Virus record (IMG/VR): IMGVR_UViG_3300015371_000008
Coordinates: 1-64,000 of that record
Length of the DNA stretch: 64,000 nt
Reading direction: 5' to 3' (one strand)
From: a virus
The translations under genes were made by a program, and so were the position numbers. Under the pieces are notes generated by a model. The model was given only the letters and a program-made list of their open reading frames with translations, was not told the DNA's origin and did not search any database. Positions 8,550 through 61,890 of the stretch are shown here, in pieces; position 1 is the first letter of the stretch; each line of letters begins with the position of its first letter.

Positions 8550-8580
8550 GCGTTCCTCCTGTGGTTGTGTCGCTCTGACG

Positions 8581-8651
8581 TACCCGGTGAGGGAGTCGAA
8601 CCCCCGCCTTCGCCTTGTAAGGGCGTTGCTCTCCCGTTGAGCTAACCGGGC
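8581..8651 (-). tRNA. tRNA-Val(TAC)
   Basis: Loop CTTACAA. Confidence 0.92.
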
Positions 8652-8668
8652 TTGACCATACACCAAAC

Positions 8669-8697
8669 AGCGTACAGTCATTTAGCGTTCAAGTCTA
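8669..8697 (-). promoter_or_regulatory. class I promoter with CGCTAAATG box
   Basis: TAGACT-17-TACGCT. Confidence 0.7.
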
Positions 8698-9129
8698 GGT
8701 TGTTTTGTGATCGTGACCGCAACCGCTGACCAGCGGCGGCACCTGAACGCGGACGACTTGTTCTCGATCGCCATAGCGGATCTGGATGAGTTCGTTCAGC
8801 GATGCCTTACCGGCCCGCTTCGACGCCTTGTCCTCGCCGAGCAGGACGGCGGCCAGTTCGTCAAAGGTCTGATTGACGCGGGCGACCGCGTGACGCATCG
8901 CCGCTTCGGTCGCATCCGCCAGCTTGGCGACTTCGGCCTTCAGCCGGTCGTTGACCGCCTGGTCGGTGAGCTGGGGGATGCGGTCGATGAGCGCTTGCAG
9001 CGCCTTGCGTTCGGCGATCATATCCTTCAGGACGCCCCTGGCCTCACTAGTCGCCTCCCGCAGGCTCTCCTCTGTCGTGATTGCCGATGAGATGTCGTCT
9101 GGCCGCTGCTGACGGCGTTTGGTTCCCAT
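8695..9129 (-). CDS. coiled-coil hypothetical protein
   Basis: Helical ORF; ATG directly after tRNA-Val(GAC). Confidence 0.65.
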   Translation of the reverse strand: MGTKRRQQRPDDISSAITTEESLREATSEARGVLKDMIAERKALQALIDRIPQLTDQAVNDRLKAEVAKLADATEAAMRHAVARVNQTFDELAAVLLGEDKASKRAGKASLNELIQIRYGDREQVVRVQVPPLVSGCGHDHKTT

Positions 9130-9130
9130 G

Positions 9131-9203
9131 TAGTCGCGGCAGGATTTGAACCTGCGACCTTCGCTGTGTCGAAGCGGTGCTCTACCAGCTGAGCTACACG
9201 ACC
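9131..9203 (-). tRNA. tRNA-Val(GAC)
   Basis: Loop TCGACAC (C33). Confidence 0.88.
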
Positions 9204-9208
9204 TTTTG

Positions 9209-9344
9209 TGGTCGAACCCGGATCCCGGCATGCAGGGTAGTCCCTTGCGTTCCCTGTCTGCCGTCGGCGGGCCCGGCCGGTCGGCCCAGGCTTTCAGGGG
9301 GCGATACAGCCGTGGGTATCGCTAGGTTGGTCCGGGTTCGACCA
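9209..9344 (-). ncRNA. putative stem-closed structured spacer RNA
   Basis: 14-bp terminal stem TGGTCGAACCCGGA/TCCGGGTTCGACCA with internal hairpins between two tRNAs. Confidence 0.5.
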
Positions 9345-9345
9345 G

Positions 9346-9418
9346 CACCGGTGGGAGGGTTCGAACCCCCGGCCTTCCGCTTTGGAGGCGGCTGCTCTAC
9401 CAACTGAGCTACACCGAT
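9346..9418 (-). tRNA. tRNA-Trp(CCA)
   Basis: Loop CTCCAAA. Confidence 0.92.
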
Positions 9419-9524
9419 CGGGCGCGAGTGAGGTATCGCGCAGCTTTTTGCAGGACTTCCGGATCATCGCTCCTGACGATGAAGGCCGACGCCTGAGACG
9501 GGATCCAGGCGTCGGCCCGCTGAG

Positions 9525-9598
9525 TGGCGGGGGCAGGATTTGAACCTGCGACCTCTGGGTTATGAGCCCAGCAAGCTACCGAACTGCTCCACCCCGCT
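9525..9598 (-). tRNA. initiator tRNA-fMet(CAT)
   Basis: 1:72 mismatch, GGG/CCC anticodon stem. Confidence 0.93.
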
Positions 9599-9608
9599 AC
9601 GTCCCATC

Positions 9609-9959: not shown

Positions 9960-9993
9960 TCATCTCCTTCGGGTGGGTCGCTCTCCACCAACG

Positions 9994-10733: not shown

Positions 10734-10795
10734 ATCCTCTCCTTCGCGCGGGGTCGCTCTTCCCGCACCCGCGAAGACGTAGACCGTCTTCGCCG

Positions 10796-11710: not shown

Positions 11711-11749
11711 GGGGTCCTCCGTGGGGGTTGGTCGCTCTCCAACACCCCA

Positions 11750-13715: not shown

Positions 13716-13835
13716 TGGACCCGGCGGGATTCGAACCCGCATCTCCGGCTCTCCCTATGACGCACACCGCCCCCGGACGGAGGTGGCCACCTCGTATCCG
13801 GATCGCGCGGTCACGCCCGATTGAGTTACGGGCCC
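13716..13835 (-). ncRNA. tRNA-like RNA with G3:U70 acceptor and no canonical anticodon arm
   Basis: GGGCCCG/CGGGTCC-A, perfect T arm, long internal hairpin. Confidence 0.6.
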
Positions 13836-15914: not shown

Positions 15915-16044
15915 GGTTCTCCTGTCGGGTCGCTCTCCCGTTGGGTGGTGGGCTGCTGTACAGCGCCGCCCACCAGGCGCTCCCCCGCACGGCCGTGCGG
16001 GGGCCGGTCACCCATACTCGATGACTTTCAGGTGATTCCGGACG

Positions 16045-16664: not shown

Positions 16665-16832
16665 GGGCGCCTCCTGTGAGACTCCCGAGTCGCTCAACCG
16701 GGAGAAGGTGCGGGTGCCGCTTCACTACGGCCTAGGCCACGACCGACCGGCTTTCTCCGCAACGCGTACGCTTCGCCGACCAGCCTCCCAAGGGCCAGAG
16801 CCCGGGGTAAGGGTTCCCGGGCGCTCCCGCCG

Positions 16833-18508: not shown

Positions 18509-18775
18509 ATCGTCCTCCTGGTAAAGGGGTCGCTCTCCCTTTGCGATCACAGGCATTTTGCGGGGGAGTGGCCCTCCTGGCTGACGTCCGGACGTCTCCA
18601 GGTCAGTTCCCCCTCCGTGATGGGATTGCCTCGATTGAGGACGACCGGCCACCTCACCGGATCCCCGGCGGTTCCCGGCAGGCGACCGAAGCCGCCTACC
18701 GGACTGGAGACTCATCACGGGTGATCGGCGCGTTTTCCCGGGAACCACCCCGAAGATTGGCGCCGAACCACTGCG

Positions 18776-19299: not shown

Positions 19300-19368
19300 C
19301 GGGTACTTCGGGGGCTGTTTCCTCTTGCGTCGGAGCGACCAACCACGGAGCGCTCCCCGAAGTACCCG
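19300..19368 (-). ncRNA. candidate antisense sRNA against GAGCGAC+SD leaders
   Basis: Perfect 14-bp closing stem; loop contains CTCCGTGGTTGGTCGCTCCG. Confidence 0.55.
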
Positions 19369-19371
19369 AAG

Positions 19372-19441
19372 TGGACCGGCGGGATCCGAGCCCCCGCATC
19401 CGCCCCCCGTCGGAGGCGAGTCTTCCTTAGACTGACGGCCC
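19372..19441 (-). pseudogene. degenerate Ala-type tRNA
   Basis: GGGCCG/CGGTCC acceptor; broken T and anticodon loops. Confidence 0.5.
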
Positions 19442-21449: not shown

Positions 21450-21542
21450 GTGGTGCTCCCAGGGGTCGCTCTTACCCGTTGAAGATTGGCCGCATCATGA
21501 CACAGGGGTGCGGCGGGCGGTAGCGAGGCGGTAACGGGGCGT

Positions 21543-48717: not shown

Positions 48718-48852
48718 TCAGAACATGCATCCCAGGCGGGCGACGACGATCTCCCAGGCCCACTCGCGGAAGGCGGGGACGAAGATCAGGGCGGCGATGT
48801 GGGCGACGAACAGCGTGACGCCGATAACGAAGGGGAGGTCGCTGCGCTTCAT
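48718..48852 (-). CDS. small membrane protein
   Basis: MKRSDLPFVIGV after AGGAG; class I leader. Confidence 0.55.
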   Translation of the reverse strand: MKRSDLPFVIGVTLFVAHIAALIFVPAFREWAWEIVVARLGCMF

Positions 48853-48894
48853 GATCTTCTCCTGGGGGTGTCGGTCGCTCTTTCCGATACCCCA

Positions 48895-48924
48895 AAGATA
48901 CAGTCATTTAGCGCCTCAGGTCAA
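48895..48924 (-). promoter_or_regulatory. class I promoter
   Basis: TTGACC-18-TATCTT with CGCTAAATG. Confidence 0.8.
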
Positions 48925-49787: not shown

Positions 49788-50731
49788 GCTGCCGCCTCCT
49801 GTCGTGTGCGCTGCACGACCAGGTCCACGATCAGGTCGAAGTCGCCCTCCGATCCAACCGCGAGGTAGATCTTGGGGCCGTTGAAGTGGATTCCGGGCGG
49901 TGTCGGTACGTAACGGTGGACGGCCAGGTGGTCGGCGTAGTTCATCCACGACAACAGTGCGGAGGAGGAGGTCCAGTCGCGTTCGGCCCGGCCCAGCTCC
50001 TTGCCGCGCATGCCGACGCGGGCGAAGCCAGGGTTGGCCAGAGCGACGGGATCGCCGCCATAGGCGCGCACCAGACTGGCGGAGGGGCGTCTAACTCCCC
50101 TTTTGATGTCGTCGGGGTGGCGCACGCACACCCATCGACCTCGCCCGCTATCGAAAAGGGTGATGGAGCCGTTGCGACTGCCCTGGGACCAGAAGGATGA
50201 GTCCACGCTGTAGAAGGGCAGCAGATCGGGGTAGGGCGGCCGGGTCATGCCGAGTCCGTGCAGGACGGCGCCGTGCGCTCGTGCGATCTTGTGGGCGCGG
50301 ATGAGCCACTGCATCATCGCCTTGCCCCGGGCGTTGACGGCGACGCCGCCGCCGAGGGCGACGAACGGATGCGTCGCGCACCACCGTTCCAGTTCCGACC
50401 ATGGCGAGCCGACGTGGAAGATCGGGATGATGTAGGTGGCGTCGCCCACCATCTGCTCCAGTTCCAGGGTGTTGCGGCCGGACGCGGCCGGATCCCCGAT
50501 GACGTCCAGTGTCATGGCGCAGTTGACGTACGGGCCGTATACCTGCAACCAGGTTGCATACCCCTTCAGCGAGATCGTCTTGCCTGTGGTGTAGGCGGTG
50601 AACGCCCCCGAGTCGGCCATGAAATCCACCTCCACGCCCCGTTCCCGGGCCCGGCGGACCAGCTTGCCCAGGTCCGTCTTGGCGAAGTAGGCGAACGAGC
50701 CGAGGATGGTGACGCGGCGTTCAGGCTGCAC
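49784..50731 (-). CDS. dpdA: DpdA-like 7-deazaguanine DNA transglycosylase (TGT fold)
   Basis: ADSGAFTA, LDVIGD, IPIFH, LHGLG, SVDSSFW; beside que genes. Confidence 0.75.
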   Translation of the reverse strand: MQPERRVTILGSFAYFAKTDLGKLVRRARERGVEVDFMADSGAFTAYTTGKTISLKGYATWLQVYGPYVNCAMTLDVIGDPAASGRNTLELEQMVGDATYIIPIFHVGSPWSELERWCATHPFVALGGGVAVNARGKAMMQWLIRAHKIARAHGAVLHGLGMTRPPYPDLLPFYSVDSSFWSQGSRNGSITLFDSGRGRWVCVRHPDDIKRGVRRPSASLVRAYGGDPVALANPGFARVGMRGKELGRAERDWTSSSALLSWMNYADHLAVHRYVPTPPGIHFNGPKIYLAVGSEGDFDLIVDLVVQRTRQEAAA

Positions 50732-51377
50732 TGTCGTGCGCCCACTCGATCAGCCGAATGAACCGGGCGGAGTCGTCCAGTTCCCCGTACGGCTCGGTCA
50801 AGTCCATGAAGAAGTTGCGGATGTGCGGCGGCACCTTGAACCGCAGCAGCGGCCACAGGTCGGAGTCGTCGGGGTCGCCGTATTCCTTCTCCAGGTCGTC
50901 CAGGGTGGGCGGCTCACCCAGGGATGCGATCATGTCGTCCAGGTCGGTTTGGGAGTATCCGGCGAGTTCGAGCAGGTCGGGGTTGTCGTCGGCGATCTCG
51001 TCCAGGACTTCGACCAGGAGACGGTCGTCCCAGCCGCCCAGTTCCGACAGCCGGTTGTCGGCCACCAGGTACGCCTCGGCTTCGGCGTCGGAGCGGGATG
51101 CCCAGCCGCGCACGATCGGGACCAGCCAGTCGCCGTCGGCTTCGGTGACGCCTTCGGGCGGGGTGGCGCCGTCGGCGCGCATGGAGTCCAGGGCGGCCAG
51201 GCGGCCGTGCCCGGCGACGAGGCGGCCGGTGCGTTCGTCGAGGAGTCCGGCCATGGTGACGCCGAATTTTTCGATCGACGCGCGGATGGCGCTGGCTTGG
51301 TGCGCTTTCGGATTGCGGGTCGCGCGGGTGATGCCGGACAGGGGCAGGTGGTCGATGCGGCGGGAGGTGGTCGTCAC
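50721..51377 (-). CDS. ParB-N-like domain protein
   Basis: RNPKAH, SIEKFG, LVAGHGRLAAL, YLVADNRL. Confidence 0.85.
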   Translation of the reverse strand: MTTTSRRIDHLPLSGITRATRNPKAHQASAIRASIEKFGVTMAGLLDERTGRLVAGHGRLAALDSMRADGATPPEGVTEADGDWLVPIVRGWASRSDAEAEAYLVADNRLSELGGWDDRLLVEVLDEIADDNPDLLELAGYSQTDLDDMIASLGEPPTLDDLEKEYGDPDDSDLWPLLRFKVPPHIRNFFMDLTEPYGELDDSARFIRLIEWAHDSAA

Positions 51378-51384
51378 GTCCGGC

Positions 51385-51415
51385 AGCGTGCCCGACGCCG
51401 GAGGTTAAGGTCGCG
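51385..51415 (-). promoter_or_regulatory. class II (putative late) promoter
   Basis: CGCGAC-N19-CACGCT-N7-GTG. Confidence 0.8.
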
Positions 51416-51854
51416 TCCTTTCGGCGCGGCCGAACAGCCACAGGATGTGGGTGACGACGACGTCCAGGCGGTGGGTGTCTCCGATCGTGTTGCCCCATTC
51501 GGAGATGTAGGCGCAGGCTCCCCGCACGGGCACGACGGTGATCTCTATTCCGGCGTCGTGAATGGCGGGTGGTCCTGCGTGCACGCAGGAGCTTCCGGCG
51601 TCGTCGGTGTAGGTGTAGCCCGGTAGGCCGTGTTCGGTGAGGCGCTGCATGAGGACCCGTCCGGCCGTCTGTGGTTCCCACCGTCGCATGATGCCCGCGC
51701 CGACCTTTCGTCGCTCCCGAAAGTCCTGCCACTTAGCGTTCGCATGACGATACGCCTCGTTACGCGGGAAGGTCTCGGGATCGTGCACCTTTTCGGCGCG
51801 TCCTACTGCTTCAACGGCATCGTCCGGATCTTCGGGTGCTGGCAGAACGGGCAC
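51405..51854 (-). CDS. hypothetical protein
   Basis: ORF track. Confidence 0.55.
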   Translation of the reverse strand: MPVLPAPEDPDDAVEAVGRAEKVHDPETFPRNEAYRHANAKWQDFRERRKVGAGIMRRWEPQTAGRVLMQRLTEHGLPGYTYTDDAGSSCVHAGPPAIHDAGIEITVVPVRGACAYISEWGNTIGDTHRLDVVVTHILWLFGRAERTRP

Positions 51855-52435
51855 TTACAGCGGGTGTAGCGCTTCCCGCGACGCAGCTGCTGAAGGGCTA
51901 TCTTCCCCGAACAGCGGTAGTGCCGCCCCTCCCGGCACGGATTCGACACATCGACGAGCTTGCCGACCAGCGGGGTGGTGTGGTTCGGCCCCAGCGCCTC
52001 CCATGTGGCCTGCGCCCCCGCCTTCCGCCCCCGCTCTTCGGCCGCGAGGGCGGCCACGAGGGCGGCGCGGATCTGCTCCAGCGTTCCGGAGGCGACACCG
52101 GGCAGGGCCAGCAGGTCGGCGTCGGCCATCTCCAAGAGATCTCCGATCTTGGGGTTGTGGGTGACAGCGTCACGGAGCAGGACGTGCGCACGCAGCCCTC
52201 GATCCAGGGCCCTGCTTGCGCGGCTTGGCACGCCGGGCAGCCCGTCGGCGACGGGCTCATCTGCCGACACCAACTCCAGATCCAGGAAGTGTCTTACCAG
52301 ATGGCGGATCTCCGTGCTGCTCACTGTGACCACGGCGACACTCACAAAATCGTTGTACCCGGACAGCCTCGCGGCCACCCGGGAACCGGCAGGTTGCGTG
52401 GCCGCGAACAGCCACTTGATCCTTTCTATCATCAA
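51803..52435 (-). CDS. protein with RNA polymerase alpha-CTD-like HhH domain
   Basis: SRASRAL...KIGDLLEMADADLLALPGVASGTLEQIRAAL. Confidence 0.65.
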   Translation of the reverse strand: MMIERIKWLFAATQPAGSRVAARLSGYNDFVSVAVVTVSSTEIRHLVRHFLDLELVSADEPVADGLPGVPSRASRALDRGLRAHVLLRDAVTHNPKIGDLLEMADADLLALPGVASGTLEQIRAALVAALAAEERGRKAGAQATWEALGPNHTTPLVGKLVDVSNPCREGRHYRCSGKIALQQLRRGKRYTRCKCPFCQHPKIRTMPLKQ

Positions 52436-52488
52436 GGGCCGGGCCCCCGACAGTAGGGGGTCCGGCCCTTGAGATGGGCGCTAAATGG

Positions 52489-54252
52489 CTATGACTTCGG
52501 TGTGGTGGCCCGCCGCCGGTACTCATCCAGGTAGACGGCGGCGCAGTCCACCAGCGCCTTCTCCTGCATCTTGGCCGGATCATTGGTGCAGCCGGACGCC
52601 GTCGCCTGGGTGGTGGCGTTGACGTTGGTCTGCGTCGTGGGCGGCTGTGTGGCGGCGTCCAGGGTGACGACAGAGGTGGCTGACGCCTGCCCGTAGGTGA
52701 CGTCCATGTACAGCTTGGTGACACCGCGCACCTCGCCGAACAGTCGCCACTTCGTCTCCGTCAACGGCGTGAACTCCGTGAGCTTCAACCCCGAGGGGAC
52801 CAGCGTGGAGTAGTCGCGGGAAATGGCCAGGTAGTTGACGGCGTCGGACAGCATGTCGTTGAAGTTGACGGGGTTGTGGTCGGCGCCGAAGACGTGGATG
52901 TCGAGCGGGTTCAGGGTGCCGCTGGTCACCCGGTCGGCCGGGATCATCGTGTAGGCGATGATCGACTGCGACTTTGAGCCGTTCGGCGTGGCCGGGGTGA
53001 CGAACCACAGCCGCCGGGTCTTGCGGTCACGCAGAAGGAACTCCGAGGTGTTGCCCGCCTGAACCTCATCGGTGGCAGGCTCGAAACCGAAGCTGGCAAG
53101 GTTCATGTAGCGGCGTCCGGCGGTCCATTCGGTCGCCTCCCGCTGGTCGGTGACGATCGACAGCGGGTAGACCGGGCCGGGGAACTCGCCCGCCTTGACG
53201 TTCGGCTTCCACGTGATGTCGGGGGTTCCGGATGTGGAGCCCTTCAGCACCAGGACACCGGCCGGGACGCGGACCGTCTGCACCTCGAACGGTACGGCCT
53301 GCTGCACCGGGATGACGATCACCGGGTAGCGGTCGGCAACCGGCGCCTTGGGGTCACCGGCGCAGTAGCCCCACACGTCGCTGCGCTCGAACAGCAGCTG
53401 CGGGTAGTACTCGGTGACGTAGTTCTCCAGGTCGTTCATCCTGTCGCCGTTGAAGGCGCGGTTGAACTTGTAGCCGTCGCGGAACGGGCACACCTGGGCG
53501 GCCTGCGCCTTGCCGTCCCACTCGGCCACGCCGGAGATCGGCTGGATCCGCTCGGAGCCGTCCAGGATGGTGGTCCACACGCCGGTGTCGGCGTCCTTGC
53601 CGGGCAGGTAGGTGGCCGACTCCTCCATGACGTCCACCCGTTGCACCGTCGAGGCGGCCTTGCCGATCGCCTTGAGGGCGCCGTTGAGGGAGGCGGTACG
53701 GCCCTCCCAGTCGGGCACGAACGGGGTGTCGGACACCTTGATGCACGCCTTGACGTCGTGCACGCCGTATTGGCAGCCGTTGGCCGCCTTGGTCATCGTG
53801 GCGGGCTTGTCGTCGGCCGTCTTGAACAGCGGCGCCGTGGAGGGGGGCGTCTTGGTCGGCAGGTGGTAGACGGTGGCGGAGGAGTAGTAGCGGCCGTCGT
53901 CCTTGTCGTTGTCCCAGAACGCGGCCACCATCGGGGCCAGGCAGACCAGCGCCAGGATAGCGGCGAGCACTCCCACGGAATTGTCCCCGACGGAGGGTCG
54001 ATACTCGCTGGTGAGCATGATGACCGCCGTGCCGATCATGCCGACGATGACGTAGATCCAGGCCAGCGGCGTGTAGGAGCCGACATCGAACAGGCCGCCG
54101 GGCAGCAGCCACTCCTGGACAGCCAGGGAGAGGGACTGGCGGGCTTCTCCGAGGCCGTGTCCGAAGAGGGCCAGGAATCCGGTGATGATGAAGTAGACGG
54201 CGGGGATCCACAGCCACCAGACGATGACGCCGACGATACGACCAAGCGACAT
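52489..54252 (-). CDS. large membrane-anchored protein
   Basis: Three N-terminal TM helices, long soluble domain, AAGGAG SD. Confidence 0.85.
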   Translation of the reverse strand: MSLGRIVGVIVWWLWIPAVYFIITGFLALFGHGLGEARQSLSLAVQEWLLPGGLFDVGSYTPLAWIYVIVGMIGTAVIMLTSEYRPSVGDNSVGVLAAILALVCLAPMVAAFWDNDKDDGRYYSSATVYHLPTKTPPSTAPLFKTADDKPATMTKAANGCQYGVHDVKACIKVSDTPFVPDWEGRTASLNGALKAIGKAASTVQRVDVMEESATYLPGKDADTGVWTTILDGSERIQPISGVAEWDGKAQAAQVCPFRDGYKFNRAFNGDRMNDLENYVTEYYPQLLFERSDVWGYCAGDPKAPVADRYPVIVIPVQQAVPFEVQTVRVPAGVLVLKGSTSGTPDITWKPNVKAGEFPGPVYPLSIVTDQREATEWTAGRRYMNLASFGFEPATDEVQAGNTSEFLLRDRKTRRLWFVTPATPNGSKSQSIIAYTMIPADRVTSGTLNPLDIHVFGADHNPVNFNDMLSDAVNYLAISRDYSTLVPSGLKLTEFTPLTETKWRLFGEVRGVTKLYMDVTYGQASATSVVTLDAATQPPTTQTNVNATTQATASGCTNDPAKMQEKALVDCAAVYLDEYRRRATTPKS

Positions 54253-54351
54253 GGCGACTCCTTTCCGATCTTTTCGGGTGTCGGTCCCGGGCGGGACCGG
54301 CTACCGGGGGCGCCACCACGCGGGGTTGGTGACGCGGCCTGGTGGCCGGTA

Positions 54352-54837
54352 CTACTTGCGGGTGGTGCTGGAACGGAAGGTGCCGGTGCTGCCGGACTTG
54401 GGCTGCCGCCGGTCGTCGCCGGACTTGACGCTCCCGCCGTAGCCGGGCTTGGCCTGGTAGGTCGGGGCGATGCCGAGCGTCTTGCGCACCGCCTCGTTGT
54501 AGGAGCGGGCCGCGCCTTGGGCGCGAGCGCTGCCGCCGTAGCGGGGATCACGAACCGTGGTCAGGACGTTGACGGGGCGGTGCGTTGCGCCGCCGCGCAC
54601 GTACCAGCGGTTGCCAGTGCGGTAGGTGGAGCCGCCGTAGTACCAGACTGGCGGATAGTAGACGCCGCCGTAGTACCAGTTGGCATGATCCACGCAGTAG
54701 TCATCGGGTACGACCTGGACGGAACCGTCGGGGTAGGTCGCCGTGCACTGCTGAAGTACGTAGGTGGGGCTGGAGCCGCAGGCGGTCAGGGCCGCGATGG
54801 CGGTGGCGGCGGCTACTGCCAGGGGGAGGGTTTTCAT
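54352..54837 (-). CDS. lipoprotein
   Basis: Signal peptide with LTAC lipobox; Tyr/Gly-rich with basic tail. Confidence 0.8.
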   Translation of the reverse strand: MKTLPLAVAAATAIAALTACGSSPTYVLQQCTATYPDGSVQVVPDDYCVDHANWYYGGVYYPPVWYYGGSTYRTGNRWYVRGGATHRPVNVLTTVRDPRYGGSARAQGAARSYNEAVRKTLGIAPTYQAKPGYGGSVKSGDDRRQPKSGSTGTFRSSTTRK

Positions 54838-55167
54838 GGCGTTCCTCTCATCAGCGCCGGGGCCGGGAGTGGCCTGGCTACCTGAGGTGCACTCGCGGGC
54901 GGGGATGTGGTTGGGGGCCCGCGAGGGCACGGCCAGGGGGCCAGCTCTACCTATCGGCCGCTCTGGGAGACGCGGATGGCGCGGTGCCGGACGTTGGTCC
55001 GGTTGCCTCGCTGGGCACGCCGGTGGCGGTTGCCGACCGGGGTGTAGCGCGGGTCGGGCTCGATGGTCGGGTACTCGTCGTCCATGTCGCGGTGCATCTA
55101 AGACTCCTGTGGTCAGGGGGCCGGTGTCGCTCAACCCGGTGGATCCCCGTCTGTTGTGTTAACTCAG

Positions 55168-55196
55168 AACGTACAGTCATTTAGCGGCTAGCGCAA
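55168..55196 (-). promoter_or_regulatory. class I promoter
   Basis: TTGCGC-17-TACGTT with CGCTAAATG. Confidence 0.7.
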
Positions 55197-55671
55197 GCTC
55201 GTTGAGCCGATTCCCTTCAGAACTTCGCCCACCTCGTCAACGACCAGCCGGGGCAGGTCGTTCCGTGCAGGCATCTTCCGCACACGCAGACGCCCACCGT
55301 CCAGCTCTTCCAGCACGCCACAGCGCACCAGGGACAGCTCCGCGAAGGCGAACCACGCCTCCGCCGCATCGGCGTCGTCCGGGCGCCGCATCGGCGTCGT
55401 CCGGGCGCTGTACGTCCACGTCAGCGGCGCACGCCGCCACGGCGGCCACGCCGGACGGGAAGACGTCGCCGGGCAGCAGGCCGCGATACAGCGGCGCCTC
55501 ACCGAGCCCAGGCTTGATGCTGGTGCAGCGGATGTGCGGCAGTTCGCCGCCGTGCAGGGCTGCGACGATGAGCTGGCAGCGCCGGTAGCAGTCCATGTAG
55601 TCGCGGCCGGGCTCGCCCACCATGAAGGTGTCCAGGCCGGGCCACGTGACCACGTGCAGGGTGTAGGTCAT
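55188..55671 (-). pseudogene. gene frameshifted by a 22-bp tandem duplication
   Basis: RPDDADAA appears in two frames; removing one copy joins the ORFs. Confidence 0.7.
55363..55406. repeat. perfect 2 x 22-bp tandem repeat
   Basis: GCCGCATCGGCGTCGTCCGGGC twice. Confidence 0.95.
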
Positions 55672-55777
55672 GACTCACCCTCCTGCCGGGGGTAGGGGCG
55701 GCGGCGGCCGGTCGGCACACCGCGCCGGGTCTGGCGCAGACCTTTGCGCCAGACCCGGGCGTTGTCGGCGGGACGCA

Positions 55778-56089
55778 TCAGGCGTCCGCCTGGTTGAGGT
55801 AGTGCAGGGGGCAAACGCTGATTGACCAGTAGGTGACCGGCTCGATCCAGATGCCGTCCAGGTTCGCAGCGTGGATGCCGTTGACGCGGGCCTTGGCGTC
55901 GTCGAGGTCGAATCGGATAGACCAGTCGTCCGGGCCTTCCTCCCACACGATCGCCCAGCGGGTGGGGGCCGACTCTAGCCAGTCCCAGTTCTCGATCAGT
56001 TCGGGACTGCGTGTGTCGGTGAGGTAGGCGGGGTGCGTGGCTCGGACGGCGGCGAGGACGGCCTCTGCCTGTTCACGGGTAACAGCCAT
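55778..56089 (-). CDS. hypothetical protein
   Basis: AGGAG SD plus GAGCGAC. Confidence 0.75.
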   Translation of the reverse strand: MAVTREQAEAVLAAVRATHPAYLTDTRSPELIENWDWLESAPTRWAIVWEEGPDDWSIRFDLDDAKARVNGIHAANLDGIWIEPVTYWSISVCPLHYLNQADA

Positions 56090-56167
56090 GATCTTCTCCT
56101 AGGTTGTCGCTCTTGCGCGCCCCCGTCGGTCGCGAACCGGCGCCGCCGATGCGGGCGGAGGCTGCGG

Positions 56168-56401
56168 CTACGGCCGCTTGACGTATTCGCCGGGCGCCAC
56201 CGTGAAGGTGCTGCCGTCGGCGTACTTCTCGATCCAGCCGAGTGAACCGGTGACGCGCGGGTTGTGCGGGACGCGCCGCTTGATCCATCGGTCGCAGGTG
56301 GTGCAGTGGCTGCGGTCGTTCAGCTTGAGGTTGGTGCACTTCACTTCGACGGTGGACTTCGGGTAGTGGCTGTTCTGGTACTTGGTGCGGCGGTTGGCCA
56401 T
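56168..56401 (-). CDS. hypothetical protein
   Basis: GGGGAG SD. Confidence 0.65.
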   Translation of the reverse strand: MANRRTKYQNSHYPKSTVEVKCTNLKLNDRSHCTTCDRWIKRRVPHNPRVTGSLGWIEKYADGSTFTVAPGEYVKRP

Positions 56402-56404
56402 GAC

Positions 56405-56665
56405 TTACTCCCCGCCTTCAAGGTCGGCCTTGAGACCGGTGACCATGACGTACGTGGTGCCGTAGGGGTCCTCGATCACATAACCGGCGTCGTCGAGTGT
56501 CTTGGCGATCTGCGTCGCCGTGTGGACGGCGACCAGAGTTGTGGCGTGGATGGCAAGGACCTTGATCTCCGTGCTGCTCCAACTGACGAGGACATCTCGC
56601 GGCACGGCGTATCCGGCGGCGCGGACGGTTCTGATGATGTCGGCGGTGTCGAACTTGACGGCCAT
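56405..56665 (-). CDS. hypothetical protein
   Basis: AGGAG SD plus class I leader. Confidence 0.7.
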   Translation of the reverse strand: MAVKFDTADIIRTVRAAGYAVPRDVLVSWSSTEIKVLAIHATTLVAVHTATQIAKTLDDAGYVIEDPYGTTYVMVTGLKADLEGGE

Positions 56666-56749
56666 TTCGTTTCTCCTGTTGGTTGTCGCTCTCAACACAA
56701 CCTACTGTACACCCATTTAGCGTTACGTCAAGGTGTGCTGATGGCGGAT

Positions 56750-57109
56750 CTACGCGGCGTTCCGGGCCGCCGCACGCGCCTCCCGCTCCGCACGCAACCC
56801 GACGAACCGGCCATGCCGGAGGGCATTCTGGTTGCCCTTCGGCGCCCCGCCCTTGGCCGGTTCGTAGTTCTTGAACCACTCCCACGCCTGCTCCACGTTC
56901 CACACCCGGCAGGTCGGGCCGTAACCCTGCCGAACCCGGCAAGGCTCCGGCATGCCGGTCCTGTCACGGTGGATGTACCAGCTATTGACCTGCTTGTCGG
57001 TGATGTAACGGACGCCGCCCTTCGACTCGGCGGAGCGGGCAGTGAACAGGACGGCCAACTCCTTGGCGGAAGCGTCGGGATTGCGGCCGAGAATCGAGTC
57101 GCTCATCAA
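56750..57109 (-). CDS. putative HTH/excisionase-like DNA-binding protein
   Basis: SAKELA...ITDKQVNSW...GMPEP...VWNVEQAWEWF. Confidence 0.55.
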   Translation of the reverse strand: MMSDSILGRNPDASAKELAVLFTARSAESKGGVRYITDKQVNSWYIHRDRTGMPEPCRVRQGYGPTCRVWNVEQAWEWFKNYEPAKGGAPKGNQNALRHGRFVGLRAEREARAAARNAA

Positions 57110-57121
57110 GGTTTCTCCGAT

Positions 57122-57742
57122 CTATCCGAAGGCACCCCAGACGCGGTACGGCACACCCATCGTGATGGCGTGCCGCACCGTCGCCGAGGTGCCAGGGCTG
57201 TTGTTGTAGTTCCACGCCATCAGCAGGGAGACGCGGGCGTCCGGGATCGGCGTGTAGTGCTTGCGTTCGCACCTGTTCGGCGGGCCGTCGTACAGGTAGC
57301 CGACCACGTTCGGGTTACGCCAATGCCCGGCCGATGGGCAGTAGTCGGGCAGGTGGCCCCGGCGCGGATGGTCCGGGTAGCCGGGGTTGGGTCGCCGGTG
57401 CGGCGAACCGTCGGCCTTGAACTCTTTGCAGTGCGGGTTGCAGGCGGCCCAGTCGGCGGGCAACCGCTCCTCGATGATCTCGACGTCGGCGCGATTCGGG
57501 ATAGCGGGACCCGCCTGGCCCTGCATGTGCGCGACCAGCGCGCTGCGGGGCGAAGATGCCCAGCGGTGCGCGATGGCGTCGGGGCCCTCGTCGGCGTCGC
57601 CGTGCCGCACGTACAGGGTGGAGTTCTCCGGCATGCGCAGCAGGTAGTCCGACAGTTCGTCGGTGACGACCGCATGCCACGCTGGACCCTGAGGCCATCC
57701 GACGGATCCGGCGATGGCCAGCCGCCGCCACGGCCTGCTCAT
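57122..57742 (-). CDS. SLOG (YspA-like) family protein
   Basis: AIAGS, VRHGDA..GPDAIA, PADW, AGHWRN, SPGT. Confidence 0.75.
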   Translation of the reverse strand: MSRPWRRLAIAGSVGWPQGPAWHAVVTDELSDYLLRMPENSTLYVRHGDADEGPDAIAHRWASSPRSALVAHMQGQAGPAIPNRADVEIIEERLPADWAACNPHCKEFKADGSPHRRPNPGYPDHPRRGHLPDYCPSAGHWRNPNVVGYLYDGPPNRCERKHYTPIPDARVSLLMAWNYNNSPGTSATVRHAITMGVPYRVWGAFG

Positions 57743-58506
57743 GCCGCTTCCCGGCGCTGTGCGGTCGCCTGCGGGCCGCTCGCCGCGCTGCGCATGTGGC
57801 GCCACCACAGTCCGGCGCGGGCCGCCCAGATGACCCAGCGGGGCGCGTAGGCCATGTCGTACAGGGCCATCGCCCACTCCACATCGCCGCGTGCCGTATG
57901 GGCGTCGTAGGCGCCAGGGTCCACACCCAGGGCGCGGGACAGGTCCTTGGAGTACCAGTGCGGCCGGATGCCGAGCCGGGCGGCGGCGGCGGTCTCAGCG
58001 TCGAAGATGTGGTGATGCCACGGCGGTTCGGAGTCGATCAGGCCGTGGCGGCGCAGCAGATCGCCGATACCCAGGTCTTCGAATCCGGGGACGCAGCCGA
58101 TCAGGACAGGCTTGGCGTCCATGCCGGTCAGGCCGGATGTCGGCCGGAACATGTAAGCGACGTCTGCGGCCAGTGCCGCCTCCACCGCCACCGGGTCGTA
58201 GGCGCCGTTGCGTTGCGGGTGCCGCTCGTCGAAGCGGCCGTAGCGGTTCATCAGGGCGAGCTGTTCGGGGTCGTCCAGGTTGAACGGCAGGTCCTCCAGT
58301 CGGACGAACGCCTGCAACCACTCTTCGGAGCCGTCGGGGTTGCGGCGGCATAGGGCGATGTCCCAGATGCGGCGGCCGTCGAGCAGGAACGGCAGGCGCA
58401 GGCCGCCGCGTCTGCCGCCGGTCTCGGTGTCGGCGAACACCAGCGCCGGACCTTTCGGCTGGTACGACGGGGGCAGCATGCCGAGCATCGGGTAGTGCAG
58501 GGACAT
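57739..58506 (-). CDS. DnaQ-like 3'-5' exonuclease
   Basis: DEDDh motifs DTETGG and HTARGDV. Confidence 0.85.
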   Translation of the reverse strand: MSLHYPMLGMLPPSYQPKGPALVFADTETGGRRGGLRLPFLLDGRRIWDIALCRRNPDGSEEWLQAFVRLEDLPFNLDDPEQLALMNRYGRFDERHPQRNGAYDPVAVEAALAADVAYMFRPTSGLTGMDAKPVLIGCVPGFEDLGIGDLLRRHGLIDSEPPWHHHIFDAETAAAARLGIRPHWYSKDLSRALGVDPGAYDAHTARGDVEWAMALYDMAYAPRWVIWAARAGLWWRHMRSAASGPQATAQRREAA

Positions 58507-58768
58507 GGGCGGGCTCCTCTCATGCCCTCCGGGGGCCGAAGCCCCCGGGGGATGGTGCCGGATGGCGGGGTTACTGTCGCGGCCTCAGCGCAGGCTGCTC
58601 GCGGCCAGGTGGCGCAGTACGGCGATGGCGACGACGGCGGCGGCCAGGATCAGAGCGCTTATAGCAGCACAGTGGAGGTGCAGCCGGTGGCCAGCCACAG
58701 GATGACGAACGGGGTGAACGGCGCGGCGGACAGGGCGATCCAGAACGCCATGATGGCGAGGCGGCGGT

Positions 58769-59113
58769 TCACGCGACACGCGCCCGCTCGTGGAACGGCA
58801 CGATCATGTGGAGGCGGAGCGCGTCGGTCCGGCCGAACGGCCGGGAGACCGCTGTCCACTCGTCGTGCCGGTAGGCGCGCTTCCACTCGTACCAGCGCAG
58901 GAGGGTGGGTGCCAAGCCGGTGACGCGGTCGTACTTGAGGGCGAGGCGCTTGAGCCGGTCACCGCTGTCGTCGAGCAGGGTGAGGGTCTGGTCGCCGACG
59001 AACAGTTCGCCGTCGGGCTGACCGTGGGTGACGTCCTTGGAGATGACGATCGTGTAGGTCTTGAACAGGAACGGGAAGGCAAGCCTCAGGTAGAGGCCGA
59101 CGTACTCCTTCAT
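58769..59113 (-). CDS. hypothetical protein
   Basis: AGGAG SD plus GAGCGAC. Confidence 0.7.
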   Translation of the reverse strand: MKEYVGLYLRLAFPFLFKTYTIVISKDVTHGQPDGELFVGDQTLTLLDDSGDRLKRLALKYDRVTGLAPTLLRWYEWKRAYRHDEWTAVSRPFGRTDALRLHMIVPFHERARVA

Positions 59114-59219
59114 GTTGATCTCCTGACTGGCCGGGTCGCAGGTCGCTCACCGAGACGACGGCCGGGGATGGTGGGACTCGCCTACGGCGGTCCTAGATTC
59201 GTGGGTATCAAACACAACC

Positions 59220-59248
59220 ATTGTGTCAGTCATTTAGCGTGTGGTCAA
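59220..59248 (-). promoter_or_regulatory. class I promoter
   Basis: TTGACC-17-CACAAT with CGCTAAATG. Confidence 0.7.
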
Positions 59249-59309
59249 GAATGGGAACGGCCCCCGCCGGGGAGTGGCGGGGGCCGTTCGATCTGGAGGC
59301 CGGTGGCGG

Positions 59310-59951
59310 TCAGGCCAGGTCGTTGCTGCTGATCGCGAACTCCGGCATCCGGTAGATCATGCGGTCGCGGAACCGGTCGTTCGCGGCGATCTCTTCCTCG
59401 CTTCGAAGGCCGCCACCGAGGCTGCGGAGAACGATCCGGATGGCGGCGATGACAGTCTTGCGGGTCAGGTCGCCCAGGTCGGCGTCGTGCTCGGTGACGC
59501 CCTGGAGAATGTCGGCGGCGATGTCGCCGAGGTGGATGGCGATGTGCGCGGACCGAAGGTGGCGTGCCTGGCTGGAAACGTGAATGCTGGACAGGTTGGC
59601 GATCTCCTCGCGGGCCTTGTCGGCGTCGTTCATGAACTCGTTGAGCGCCATCATGATGCGGCGGTCGTTGGAGACGGCGTCTCGCTTCTCGGCCAAGGAC
59701 TTGGCGGAGGAGGTTTTCGCCACTTCCTGCTTGACGAACCTCTCGACCCAGTCGGCCTTGGTGGCGGGCTTGGCGTCGTACTGGGACAGAGTGACGAGGT
59801 CGCGAAGTTCCGCGATGGTCATCCCGTTGGCCTTCTCGCGCAGTTCGTCGGCAAACTTGGCGATGCGCGGCTCCAGGATGGGCTCAGCTTCGGCCAGGGC
59901 GCGGGTGGCGGGGGTGTTCATGTTGTCGGTGTCGAACCGGGTGGCGGTCAT
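59310..59951 (-). CDS. helical protein with Rho-N/HeH-like motif, paralog 2
   Basis: MTIAELRDL...AKPATKADWVE. Confidence 0.75.
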   Translation of the reverse strand: MTATRFDTDNMNTPATRALAEAEPILEPRIAKFADELREKANGMTIAELRDLVTLSQYDAKPATKADWVERFVKQEVAKTSSAKSLAEKRDAVSNDRRIMMALNEFMNDADKAREEIANLSSIHVSSQARHLRSAHIAIHLGDIAADILQGVTEHDADLGDLTRKTVIAAIRIVLRSLGGGLRSEEEIAANDRFRDRMIYRMPEFAISSNDLA

Positions 59952-59987
59952 CTGTTTCTCCTGTGATTGTCGCTCCGAACACAACCA

Positions 59988-60016
59988 GCGATACATCCAT
60001 TTAGCGCGTACGTCAA
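59988..60016 (-). promoter_or_regulatory. class I promoter
   Basis: TTGACG-17-TATCGC with CGCTAAATG. Confidence 0.7.
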
Positions 60017-60090
60017 GGCTGTTATTCGTGTCGTTCGCGCCCCGCCTGGTCACGAACCGGCGCCCCCCGAAGAGGAGCGGGGCTGACGCA

Positions 60091-60777
60091 CTACGGCTTG
60101 ATCATGTCCACGGTGATCGGCATGCTCCGGTCCAGGGACATCACCAGAGCGCTGCGGAACCGCTCCGCCGCCGCCGCCTCCAGCAGATAGTCGGCCTTCA
60201 GCATGCTGGACAGCCCGTTGGCCAAGACCGCCGAAGGGAACTCGAACAGCGTCTCCATGGCTTCGGCGAGGGCCGCCAGGACGGCGTCACGCAGGTCGTC
60301 GCCCTTCTGTACGGCGCGGAGAACCCGGATCGCCCGACTGGCGGTCAGTTGCGCGATGGCGATGGAGTCGACCTGCCAGCGCATCACGGCGTACAGAGCC
60401 CTGCCGTTGGAGTCGTTGGCCAGTTCCCGCAGCTCCTTGTCGGCCGTGTCGGAGGCGTCGAGGAAGTCGTTTAGCTTCTCGGCCAGGTGCCGGTCCCGCT
60501 GCGCCTCCTTCTGGAGCTGCTTGAGCGTCTGGGCGGCGGCGGTCTTCTTCGACTCCTGATTGATGTACAGCTCGACCCAGTCGGCCTTGGTGGCGGGCTT
60601 GGCGTTGACCGGCTTGCCCACGAACTCCTTGAGTTCGGCCACGGTCATCTCCTCGGCCGCCTCGTACGCCTCCCGCGTTCGGGTGGCGACGGCGTCCAGG
60701 AGGACGTCCTTGGCTTCGGCCAGGGCGCGGGTAGCAGGGGTGTCGAGTGTGTCGATGTTGAAGCGGTTGGCGGTCAT
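60091..60777 (-). CDS. helical protein with Rho-N/HeH-like motif, paralog 1
   Basis: MTVAELKEF...AKPATKADWVE. Confidence 0.75.
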   Translation of the reverse strand: MTANRFNIDTLDTPATRALAEAKDVLLDAVATRTREAYEAAEEMTVAELKEFVGKPVNAKPATKADWVELYINQESKKTAAAQTLKQLQKEAQRDRHLAEKLNDFLDASDTADKELRELANDSNGRALYAVMRWQVDSIAIAQLTASRAIRVLRAVQKGDDLRDAVLAALAEAMETLFEFPSAVLANGLSSMLKADYLLEAAAAERFRSALVMSLDRSMPITVDMIKP

Positions 60778-60862
60778 CTGGCTACTCCTGTGGTTGTTGT
60801 CGCTCTGGAGTGCCCCGCCCGGTCATGAACCGGGAGCCGACTACGGTCGGGGCTGGTCGTGC

Positions 60863-61252
60863 TCAGTCGCTCAGGAGGTTGTTCAGCCCCCAGGTTTCGC
60901 TGCGGTCGTGCAGCTGAACGGGGCCCCGGGTGCCGAACAGGCTGATCCAGGCGTCCTCGTACAGGCTTCCGCCGCCCATTACGACCCAGGCGCCACCGGG
61001 CATGTACGGCGTGTGAGTCCTGCTGTCCGGCTCGGCCAGCGGGCGCAGGGTCGGGCCGTAGCCGATTCCGGCCACGATGACGGCGGGGGCGTCCGGGCGG
61101 ACCGGACGCAGTGCCGCGCCGTTCGTCAGCTTCAGGGCGTCCACGTCGGGTCCGACGATGGTGACGTCCCAGTAGGTGGCGCTGATTCCGCCGTTAGGGC
61201 TGTGGAACTGGCTCTTGAGGATCTGGCCCGGGATGCCGTGGGTGTAGTTCAT
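60863..61252 (-). CDS. hypothetical protein
   Basis: GGAGG SD; C-terminal LHDRSET. Confidence 0.75.
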   Translation of the reverse strand: MNYTHGIPGQILKSQFHSPNGGISATYWDVTIVGPDVDALKLTNGAALRPVRPDAPAVIVAGIGYGPTLRPLAEPDSRTHTPYMPGGAWVVMGGGSLYEDAWISLFGTRGPVQLHDRSETWGLNNLLSD

Positions 61253-61299
61253 GTCAGCGGTCCTCCGACTCCTGTTGCTTGTCGCTCCGAACACAACCA

Positions 61300-61328
61300 A
61301 CGGTACATCCATTTAGCGCGTACGGCAA
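61300..61328 (-). promoter_or_regulatory. class I promoter
   Basis: TTGCCG-17-TACCGT with CGCTAAATG. Confidence 0.75.
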
Positions 61329-61331
61329 GGG

Positions 61332-61787
61332 TTATCCGGAAGCGATGCCAGCAGCCGCCAGAATGCACACCTCATGCAGCATCTGGTCCACCAGCGTCTT
61401 GCCGTCGTCGTACCAGTCGCCGGACCCGGTCGCCTCCATGAACCGCTTGACCGGCCAGCGCCGGTCTATGACGGCGTGGGACGCCCACGAGAACGCCACA
61501 GCAGCGGCGGCGCGGCCGGGCCGGACCCGGACGCCGGTCGTCGCGGCTACCGCCGCCACGGTGGCGATGAGGGCCGCGTGGTAGGTGGCGCAGTGGCGCT
61601 GGTTCGCCTTCCACGTCTCCCGATTGGGCGTGCCGTTGTCCTGCCCCGTCTTCGGGTCGATGTTGTAGCCGGGCGCCGCCTTATGTGTGGCGTCGTGGTC
61701 GGTCTGGGGGCCGTAGTCGCCGAGCAGGTGGCCGACGCGGGCGGCGATGGCCAGGACGGCGAAGCGGATGGCACGGTCATGGTTCAT
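61332..61787 (-). CDS. DUF3307-like membrane protein
   Basis: GHLLGDY..QTD, SHAVIDRRW, DQMLH. Confidence 0.8.
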   Translation of the reverse strand: MNHDRAIRFAVLAIAARVGHLLGDYGPQTDHDATHKAAPGYNIDPKTGQDNGTPNRETWKANQRHCATYHAALIATVAAVAATTGVRVRPGRAAAAVAFSWASHAVIDRRWPVKRFMEATGSGDWYDDGKTLVDQMLHEVCILAAAGIASG

Positions 61788-61890
61788 GATTTCCTCCTGA
61801 TGACGTGTCGCTCGTTGAACGTCATTACAGACCTGATAGGGCACCGGGAACCCGTATTAGTACGGGTTCCCGGTGTGGCGTGGGACACCT

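Follow-up and report, generated by a model that had tools for sequence, protein, structure and literature searches.

The stretch analysed here (the window, 64,000 nt) comprises positions 1-64,000 of the IMG/VR virus record IMGVR_UViG_3300015371_000008, a single contig of 89,220 bp; "the record" refers to this full length. The record was classed as linear in IMG/VR, its completeness was estimated by CheckV at 62%, and the G+C content is 66%. Its source is an uncultured high-GC soil phage or phage-plasmid; the sequencing runs that contain the sequence are rhizosphere and soil metagenomes. Codon-position G+C indicated leftward transcription for nearly all genes up to approximately 83 kb, and 37 tRNA genes lie on the same strand between 7.2 and 20.7 kb. 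Gene calls are our own and are crude. The subject of this study is the heptamer GAGCGAC (GTCGCTC on the plus strand), hereafter the tag, which recurs upstream of the Shine-Dalgarno sequence of many of these genes. The tag is best explained as the invariant core of a short 5' leader shared by the Shine-Dalgarno-dependent messages of this element.

The window contains 36 copies of GTCGCTC on its plus strand and 7 on the opposite one; the sum of 43 was reached in 0 of 100 shuffled windows (mean 20.7, maximum 31, both strands summed). The counts for the two strands of the whole record were 55 and 10. Forty-eight copies in the record were leader copies, all on the coding strand. They comprise the 28 sites listed in the original prediction, a further one at 33491, and 19 beyond the window. 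Each of the 28 listed sites was recovered on the coding strand with GGAG or GAGG 3-18 nt downstream, followed by a start codon; the observation was confirmed. The leader sites in the window are as follows.

8569-8575, minus strand: tag 4 nt past tRNA-Val, without a hairpin; ATG at 8549
9977-9983, minus strand: tag 9 nt past tRNA-Glu; stem GGTGG/CCACC; GTG at 9959
10753-10759, minus strand: tag with stem GTGCGGG/CCCGCGC
11731-11737, minus strand: tag with stem GTTGG/CCAAC, located 12 nt past the -10 of a CTAAATG-box promoter; of all leaders the best match to the candidate anti-leader RNA described below, with a predicted -41.8 kcal/mol
15929-15935, minus strand: tag with stem CGGG/CCCG
16689-16695, minus strand: tag with stem CTCCCGG/TCGGGAG; ATG at 16664
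18529-18535, minus strand: tag with stem AAAGGG/CCCTTT
21465-21471, minus strand: tag with a weak stem
26469-26475, minus strand: tag with stem ACCCG/CGGGT, first in the DnaB operon
27075-27081, minus strand: tag with stem GCCCGG/CCGGGC; promoter 23 nt upstream
32067-32073, minus strand: tag with a 9-bp stem; variant promoter box farther upstream
33491-33497, minus strand: tag overlooked earlier; stem GCGGC/GCCGC; TTG at 33470
36916-36922, minus strand: tag of the promoter class; stem GTTGGG/CCCAAC
37999-38005, minus strand: tag with stem GCGTCGG/CCGACGC; start codon unusually distant from GGAG
39217-39223, minus strand: tag of the promoter class; 9-bp stem
41249-41255, minus strand: tag of the promoter class (12 nt); stem GTGTTGG/CCAACGT
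45013-45019, minus strand: tag of the promoter class
45452-45458, minus strand: tag of the promoter class; weak stem
46108-46114, minus strand: tag of the promoter class (12 nt) with stem GTGTTGG/CCAACAC, preceding the FolE, QueE and QueD genes
48674-48680, minus strand: tag without a stem, after a GC hairpin
48874-48880, minus strand: tag of the promoter class
55126-55132, minus strand: tag with promoter 35 nt upstream; no base change listed for this leader in the X5 relative (see below)
56106-56112, minus strand: tag 5 nt past the discriminator of a mini tRNA-like element, without a hairpin
56685-56691, minus strand: tag of the promoter class (12 nt)
59142-59148, minus strand: tag within a longer leader
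59969-59975, minus strand: tag of the promoter class (12 nt)
60799-60805, minus strand: tag 5 nt past the discriminator of a mini tRNA-like element, without a hairpin
61281-61287, minus strand: tag of the promoter class (12 nt)
61807-61813, minus strand: tag in a 12-nt loop; stem ATGACGT/ACGTCAT

Across the 48 leaders the tag lay 5' of the Shine-Dalgarno sequence and 21-35 nt from the start codon, which was ATG in 44 of the 48 genes. The spacing from the tag to GGAG/GAGG was 3-18 nt with a mode of 9-10, the linker between them was C/A-rich and nearly devoid of G and U, and the Shine-Dalgarno sequence was followed by the start codon after 5-9 nt. The full pattern GAGCGAC-N3-18-AGGAG-N4-10-ATG occurred 37 times in the record and was absent from the backwards control. 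Leaders accounted for 48 of the 57 gene-sense copies of the heptamer. Two of them (80553 and 81730) lie on the plus strand ahead of plus-strand genes, and the word therefore tracks gene orientation. No gene with an upstream gap below 25 nt, i.e. overlapping or abutting its neighbour according to the crude calls, had a tag within 60 nt upstream.

The word itself was close to invariant, as only two to four one-mismatch versions were found in a leader context, compared to 48 exact copies. The seven plus-strand copies in the window that are not in leaders correspond to approximately the chance frequency; those at 306, 23252, 23841, 37872, 57098 and 60866 are inside coding sequence, and that at 19527 is in the D arm of tRNA-Ala. 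Three related sites in the window were recorded separately.

51710-51716, minus strand: orphan tag with hairpin CTTTCG/CGAAAG and no clear Shine-Dalgarno sequence
1739-1745, minus strand: one-mismatch tag GAGCGGC in a long hairpin ahead of gene 840-1715
4687-4693, plus strand: one-mismatch tag GAGCGAA with hairpin CCCGG/CCGGG ahead of the plus-strand gene 4717-5310

The tag is private to this element. In each of two genomes from the candidate host family the leader pattern occurred twice, which was the level of the backwards control. In Rfam searches only tRNAs reached the gathering score, and with E-values up to 1 no match (C4 RF01695, 6C and riboswitches included) overlapped any leader or the hairpin RNA at 19300-19372 considered below; the Rfam comparison suggested in the original prediction thus gave no family for the leaders.

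The stems flanking the tag differ in sequence among sites and still pair, as had been proposed. The mean length of the best stem was 4.92 bp. With the 3' flanks exchanged between sites it was 3.72 ± 0.15 bp, and the highest value among 1000 permutations was 4.27. Stems ranged from 4 to 9 bp, and stems of at least 5 bp were present at 31 of the 48 sites against 13.6 expected by permutation. For sites with neither a promoter nor a tRNA-like element nearby the figures were 12 of 15 against 3.1, for the promoter class 18 of 23 against 12.3, and for the class following tRNAs or tRNA-like elements 1 of 10 against about 0.1. The excess of pairing persisted after removal of the repeated promoter cassettes. 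MAFFT aligned the motif in register and not the stems, and register-normalised counts and permutation were used instead. The resulting pair tables contained several pair types at each stem position. The stems covary, and those of sites lacking a promoter or tRNA-like element were unrelated in sequence. GAGCGAC was unpaired in most predicted folds and partly paired in several, and the leader hairpins were not followed by U runs. Presentation of the word in a hairpin is therefore real but is not a constant of the system. As a stem of at least 5 bp was found at only 1 of 10 sites in the tRNA-like class, the shared feature is an unpaired GAGCGAC beside a stable helix and not a hairpin as such.

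Three types of sequence were observed immediately upstream of the tagged leaders: promoters, tRNAs or tRNA-like elements, and, for the remaining copies, other GC hairpins or longer leader sequence. Twenty-seven sites in the record carry a promoter-like cassette consisting of TTGAC, a spacer of 17-18 nt containing CGCTAAATG, and TGTAnnnT. A tag follows 25 of these 27 CTAAATG-box promoters; its distance from the -10 is precisely 12 nt in ten of them and 8-18 nt in 20. Half of the tag copies are therefore part of a repeated promoter-leader cassette, and the earlier statement that the word is "not a promoter part" was too general. What stands of it is that 23 copies have no adjacent promoter, that the spacing from promoter to tag ranges from 1 to 38 nt whereas that from tag to GGAG is kept, and that the promoter at 8684 is untagged. 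This promoter drives tRNA-Val, and a tag appears only past the tRNA, directly ahead of an open reading frame (ORF); the word thus goes with translated messages and not with promoters.

46127-46142, minus strand: promoter core CTAAATG-box/TGTAnnnT (example), 12 nt upstream of tag 46108
First T of TAAATG in tag-preceding promoters (also 46142): 11765, 26492, 27120, 36951, 39253, 41283, 45046
First T of TAAATG in further tag-preceding promoters: 45487, 48910, 55183, 56719, 60003, 61315
8669-8684, minus strand: CTAAATG-box promoter without a tag, feeding tRNA-Val
1775 (first T of TAAATG), plus strand: CTAAATG box with no tag after it

Initiation approximately 7 nt past the -10 would put the 5' end of promoter-class transcripts at the base of the hairpin and the start of the tag near +6. 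The CGCTAAATG box is invariant in the spacer of this sigma70-type promoter and locked to the TGTAnnnT -10, and it is probably a regulator site. A gene for a GntR/UTRA protein (82355-83110) is present in the record that carries these promoters.

Two tag copies were located 4 and 9 nt past real tRNAs (tRNA-Val and tRNA-Glu, respectively), and nine others 5-7 nt past the discriminator of a mini tRNA-like three-way junction. This structure is built of an acceptor stem of 6-7 bp, a small hairpin and a CCGGTTCGNGACCGG T-arm-like hairpin, followed by A-CGC; it has no D arm, and neither ARAGORN nor Rfam made a call on it. Approximately 11 such junctions lie between leftward genes of the record.

56119-56162, minus strand: mini tRNA-like element with the three parts named above, adjoining tag 56106
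60812-60853, minus strand: mini tRNA-like element adjoining tag 60799
Beyond the window: mini tRNA-like elements upstream of 68542, 68793, 69044, 69756, 75350, 76401 and 77700
Beyond the window: further mini tRNA-like elements at about 74190 and 74672 of the record

The mini tRNA-like elements look like RNase P/Z punctuation of polycistronic transcripts. Processing of the RNase Z type at the tRNA and tRNA-like sites would place the start of the tag at about +5 to +10, and the same distance from the predicted 5' end was obtained at roughly 31 sites when both kinds of 5' end were considered.

A second promoter-like class, CGCGAC(C)TTAAC...CACnnT (CGCGAC-N19-CACnnT), is present in the same genome. 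In at least three cases (50721-51377, 30142-30507 and 6438-6965) a GTG start codon follows approximately 7 nt later, which suggests that these genes are leaderless, with the start codon at about the predicted start of the transcript.

Second-class promoters, start of CGCGAC on the sense strand: 7002, 30536, 39920, 48074, 51415, 58581

Taken together, the tag likely acts at the RNA level when all roles of this kind are counted together. This agrees with the original prediction, as far as can be judged from a word that behaves as a leader element tied to Shine-Dalgarno-led starts. Antitermination of the nut type, one of the roles then suggested, is unlikely, as the approximately 48 copies are all set against ribosome sites. 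A small RNA as partner had also been suggested, and a candidate for it was found in the tRNA array.

19300-19372, minus strand: candidate anti-leader RNA in the tRNA array; 14-bp stem; z = -4.0

The loop of this hairpin, CUCC-GUGGUUG-GUCGCUC, is the exact complement of the tag, a consensus-like linker (CAACCAC) and GGAG. On the transcribed strand, CUCC...GUCGCUC occurs only here, besides the backs of the two plus-strand leaders. A C/A linker with GGAG follows just 0.155% of antisense-strand positions, so that 0.012 such sites would be expected among the eight antisense copies of GAGCGAC. Predicted duplexes between the anti-leader and the 48 leaders had a mean energy of -30.1 kcal/mol, compared to -18.4 ± 1.8 kcal/mol for shuffled loops, and they spanned both the tag and the Shine-Dalgarno sequence. 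UCGCU is predicted to lie in an apical loop of 5 nt; the RNA would thus have, by prediction, the exposed loop of kissing-loop antisense systems of the c4, CopA/CopT and Inc RNA type. As tRNA-Pro begins approximately 5 nt past the hairpin, tRNA processing could release the anti-leader RNA. Since about 48 genes share the tag and one hairpin RNA carries its exact mirror, the whole gene class is probably under joint control at the RNA level, as judged from sequence.

A mechanism can be proposed on this basis. The mature leader would be laid out as a stable helix, the unpaired GAGCGAC starting at about +5 to +10, a linker rich in C and A (3-18 nt), the Shine-Dalgarno sequence (A)GGAG, a further 5-9 nt and ATG. 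In some leaders the helix would be a hairpin whose loop carries the tag, in others a tRNA or mini tRNA-like element immediately 5' of the tag; the 5' end of the message would arise from initiation at the conserved promoter or from processing of the tRNA type. The tag would serve as an address label that is read in trans by something encoded by the element. The most likely reader would be the hairpin RNA of approximately 75 nt at 19300-19372, freed from the tRNA array by tRNA processing. First contact would be made between the exposed UCGCU/GUCGCUC of the anti-leader and the unpaired tag; pairing would then spread across the linker to cover GGAG and keep the 30S subunit from binding, and the outcome would be lower translation, probably also lower stability, of about 48 messages at once. 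Damping or silencing of the tagged messages by the mirror RNA, with pairing that would run from the tag to the Shine-Dalgarno sequence, is a tentative proposal, which we consider slightly less than an even prospect. Its extension to a genome-wide RNA-against-RNA regulon is more doubtful; here the leadered class would be tuned or shut off jointly, the class predicted to be leaderless would escape, and promoters and mini tRNA-like elements would be interchangeable makers of 5' ends. Escape of the leaderless second class from an RNA directed at the Shine-Dalgarno sequence, and with it the two-class scheme, is plausible but unproven.

Several observations weigh against control by the anti-leader RNA. 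Fold energies of the leaders were equal on both strands and G-U pairs gave no strand signal; the pair types therefore do not tell which strand folds, and the case for RNA rests on context. The anti-leader is present in a single copy and resembles an inverted leader of the 11731 type, its best match, of which it could be an inert inverted copy. A short nhmmer profile of the leaders, which is a weak one, did not rank it above bare copies of the heptamer. The complement of the tag lies in a small loop of 5 nt with a closing G-C pair, which leaves little room for a kissing contact. The anti-leader shares its strand with the tagged genes and may be co-expressed with them, which would fit damping better than a timed switch. 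No RNA run was among the sequencing runs listed as containing the sequence, and the 38% of the genome that is missing according to CheckV may hold other readers.

The main alternative is that a protein of the element reads the tag, or that the tag acts by itself as a 5' stabiliser or translation enhancer, which would make the mirror RNA irrelevant or secondary. The 5'-proximal unpaired tag beside its stable helix would recruit a factor that shields the message from decay of the RNase E/J type or aids 30S loading. Invariance in seven of seven positions is typical for the site of a specific RNA-binding protein. As the tag is not used by the candidate hosts, its reader should be encoded by the element, and for most of the approximately 110 ORFs no family is known. 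The scan of about 100 proteins revealed no RNA-binding family, which is weak evidence since most of these are orphans. This alternative would be consistent with the tag at about +5 to +10 from the predicted 5' ends of roughly 31 sites and, in the promoter class, with a helix at the extreme 5' end, like known 5'-terminal stem-loop stabilisers such as that of the Escherichia coli ompA leader. The unstructured C/A-rich linker and the near-optimal Shine-Dalgarno sequence and ATG would also suit it. However, the sites past tRNA-like elements have no 5' hairpin, so that a pure stem-loop stabiliser role cannot be general, and all versions leave the exact mirror of tag, linker and GGAG in a stable hairpin of the tRNA array unexplained. 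We regard this group of explanations as rather unlikely.

Cleavage by an endoribonuclease at or near GAGCGAC, which would separate cistrons and give the messages a common leader start, is quite improbable. The copies found in intercistronic gaps after 3' hairpins, tRNAs and tRNA-like elements would suit such cut sites, as would a word that is unpaired in most predicted folds. However, half of the copies need no cut, since they lie where a primary transcript is predicted to start; past the tRNA-like elements the end would be produced by the tRNA enzymes of the host, and no nuclease family was recognised in the protein scans.

Comparison with relatives bears on a further explanation, in which the leaders would be recombination linkers, i.e. 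cassettes of the promoter-early stem-loop (PeSL) kind that shuffle small genes, and the tag would not itself be regulatory. The stretch 44000-63900 was compared with contigs of four DNA runs. A relative in run X5, 90-95% identical, keeps the tag. In this relative a single 33-nt leader keeping GTTGGAGAGCGACCAAC stands in place of 48659-48888, a 230-nt stretch with a 44-codon ORF between the tagged leaders 48674 and 48874. This difference is a cassette-type gene loss or gain at leader repeats, in one case, and it matches the pattern of ORFans flanked by PeSLs (PMC2839356). On the other hand, the 25 copies outside promoter cassettes share just 7 nt and a Shine-Dalgarno context, which is too little for homologous exchange, and yet the word is invariant; shuffling could also be a by-product of a regulatory repeat. 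A role purely in recombination is very unlikely.

Searches for more distant relatives gave little. Megablast and tblastn against GenBank phages gave no match for the window DNA or for a protein of 587 aa, and DnaB had only distant matches there; PLSDB gave one weak match. Scans of IMG/VR for promoter plus tag, for the protein and for the leader pattern gave none or single chance matches among the matches listed. Homologues of the 587-aa protein with 91% and 56% identity were found. More distant homologues, from metagenome contigs and from Actinocorallia and Actinomadura genomes, were 32-40% identical to the protein of the window (L013 was 53% identical to P0007), and their loci had no tag, CTAAATG box or analogous enriched leader word.

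Least likely of all is a DNA site, that is, a promoter-proximal operator or an element of the initial transcribed region for a DNA-binding regulator or sigma factor (for example the factor recognising the CGCGAC box in promoters of the second class), for although the fixed distance of the tag from the -10, the GCGAC common to the tag and the CGCGAC box, and the equal hairpin potential of both strands would agree with it, the 23 promoterless copies, several of them directly past tRNAs or tRNA-like elements, the absence of the word after the tRNA-driving promoter, the keeping of GGAG spacing while promoter spacing varies, the asymmetry of the word, and stems that are unrelated and yet pair, which would be useless to a site in duplex DNA, all argue against it.

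Other functions were considered and discarded. GUCGCUC is not present in the 16S rRNA of Actinomadura or Actinocorallia, where only GUCGCU occurs near position 1310, and an enhancer pairing with rRNA (T7 epsilon type) was rejected for want of a 16S complement, the identity of the host being itself a prediction. A polar DNA word of the FtsK/SpoIIIE type (KOPS/SRS-like) was rejected because 48 of the 57 gene-sense copies are tied to leaders. In tRNA-Ala at 19527 the tag corresponds to the 3' strand of the D stem and the next bases; mimicry of a tRNA D arm was dropped, as the leaders lack the partner strand. An RNase P microhelix with ACCA was inconsistent among sites and was not retained, nor were integron attC-like sites, no integrase family having been recognised among the scanned proteins.

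The gene content of the record provides the setting for these leaders. The majority of the ORFs could not be assigned to a family, and the following features were recognised.

24030-25385: DnaB, in the operon headed by tag 26469
Within the protein set of window 1-37 kb: SSB
Within the protein set of window 1-37 kb: amidase / peptidoglycan-binding protein
46153-46797, minus strand: FolE
46797-47534, minus strand: QueE
47531-48037, minus strand: QueD
48921-49787, minus strand: QueC-like protein
71858-72700 of the record: ParA
82355-83110 of the record: GntR/UTRA regulator
Within the protein set of 64-89 kb: NUDIX protein
Within the protein set of 64-89 kb: PIF1-like helicase
84049-86814 of the record: FtsK/SpoIIIE-like protein
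88552-89214 of the record: weak terminase match (E = 7e-4), truncated by the contig end

FolE, QueE, QueD and the QueC-like protein form a cluster of the 7-deazaguanine pathway at 46153-49787 on the minus strand, which suggests that the element modifies its own DNA. The set of ParA, GntR/UTRA, NUDIX and FtsK/SpoIIIE-like proteins recalls conjugative plasmids and integrative elements of actinomycetes, and the record may be a phage-plasmid instead of a plain phage. Because one orphan protein has homologues in Actinocorallia, Actinomadura and Thermomonospora, the host is probably an actinomycete of this group, as far as protein homology indicates. An Rfam tRNA match at 13716-13835 in the tRNA array spans 120 nt. 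At 59252-59323 on the minus strand a sub-threshold match to the actinobacterial 6C RNA was observed (36.7 bits, gathering score 47); it lies just ahead of a promoter and its second hairpin with a C-rich loop fits well, but it may merely be the terminator of gene 59310-59951.

Short private words ahead of many phage genes have been known since the start-associated sequences (SAS) of Cluster K mycobacteriophages were described in 2011. The present case is unusually clean, with 48 exact copies of a word that is separate from the Shine-Dalgarno sequence, unpaired beside a helix, and positioned about +5 to +10 relative to the predicted 5' end, regardless of whether a promoter or a tRNA-like element provides that end. 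It also offers a concrete candidate reader in the mirror-image RNA of the tRNA array. If the pairing is true, one small RNA could control dozens of scattered phage genes, and a portable orthogonal leader/anti-leader pair for high-GC actinobacteria would be available; if it is false, the tag remains a good bait for a new RNA-binding protein.

The closest described kind of element is the SAS, with its extended form ESAS, of the Cluster K mycobacteriophages (PMC3203893), the function of which was still untested as of 2025 (PMC12699233). The SAS has the 13-bp consensus GGGATAGGAGCCC, contains the Shine-Dalgarno sequence and lies 3-7 bp from the start codon; the ESAS consists of inverted repeats of 17 bp, imperfect and conserved in the sequence of their arms, in which compensatory pairing is absent, and its authors favoured DNA binding (PMC3203893). 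Both systems use a short asymmetric word that is restricted to a single actinophage lineage (Cluster K has 11-19 copies, the present element 48), is present in a single orientation in non-structural regions ahead of mostly ATG starts, and often has an inverted repeat upstream; a reader of RNA or protein has been proposed for each. The original prediction had drawn the analogy in position. As GAGCGAC lies upstream of a separate GGAG, whereas the SAS includes the Shine-Dalgarno sequence, the likeness is one of kind and not of position. The difference in sequence that it had also claimed was upheld: the SAS consensus had no exact copy in the window, and of its six copies with two mismatches (2.3 ± 1.4 expected by chance) none was at a GAGCGAC leader. 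The arms of the ESAS are conserved in sequence and do not covary, whereas the stems described here are unrelated outside the promoter cassettes and yet pair beyond permuted controls. A mirror RNA has been reported for none of the SAS, and a candidate one is present here. In all, the interpretation given in the original prediction was partly supported.

The PeSL cassettes of the T4-type phages RB49 and phi1 (Arbiol et al. 2010, PMC2839356) are a second system of interest. Like the leaders described here, they are repeated intergenic units of a sigma70-type promoter, a stem-loop, a Shine-Dalgarno sequence and a start codon that flank small orphan genes, and close relatives gain and lose genes through cassette exchange; for the present element one such case at cassette borders was observed (X5). 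The promoter and stem-loop layout is shared by approximately 25 copies, in which the hairpin is downstream of the -10, and not by the 23 copies without a promoter. In contrast, the stem-loops of PeSLs have no constant location, being usually inside or ahead of the promoter, act as terminators and have no invariant loop word, whereas here the helix follows the -10, the loop word is invariant and half of the copies are promoterless.

One phage factor acting on the ribosome-binding regions of many early messages is known from the T4 repressor RegA and nuclease RegB. These are proteins, and their sites overlap the Shine-Dalgarno sequence or the start codon and are loosely conserved. The likeness lies in a single phage-encoded factor with many target messages; no homologue of either was recognised here.

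Among small phage RNAs, the pairing of c4 covers a ribosome-binding site. According to the accounts cited, the c4 RNA of P1 and P7 regulates expression of Ant (Citron and Schuster 1990, as cited in PMC8201110; Rfam RF01695), and the CI RNA of P4 causes premature termination of transcription (PMC4825925). As these accounts present them, both are small structured phage RNAs that are processed from a longer transcript and pair with phage messages through exposed stretches, as the anti-leader may do. They act on one operon and one or two targets, whereas approximately 48 dispersed leaders would be addressed here, and the candidate described here had no sequence or Rfam match.

The punctuation of polycistronic transcripts by tRNAs follows a model from mitochondria, and small stable RNAs are present within the tRNA cluster of T4. 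By analogy, the tRNA and tRNA-like structures between the cistrons of the present element would let RNase P and RNase Z set the ends of messages. The tRNA-like elements differ from the tRNAs of the model in that they lack a D arm and are not called by ARAGORN or Rfam. The predicted anti-leader RNA would, like the stable RNAs of T4, be a non-tRNA stable RNA lying within a phage tRNA cluster.

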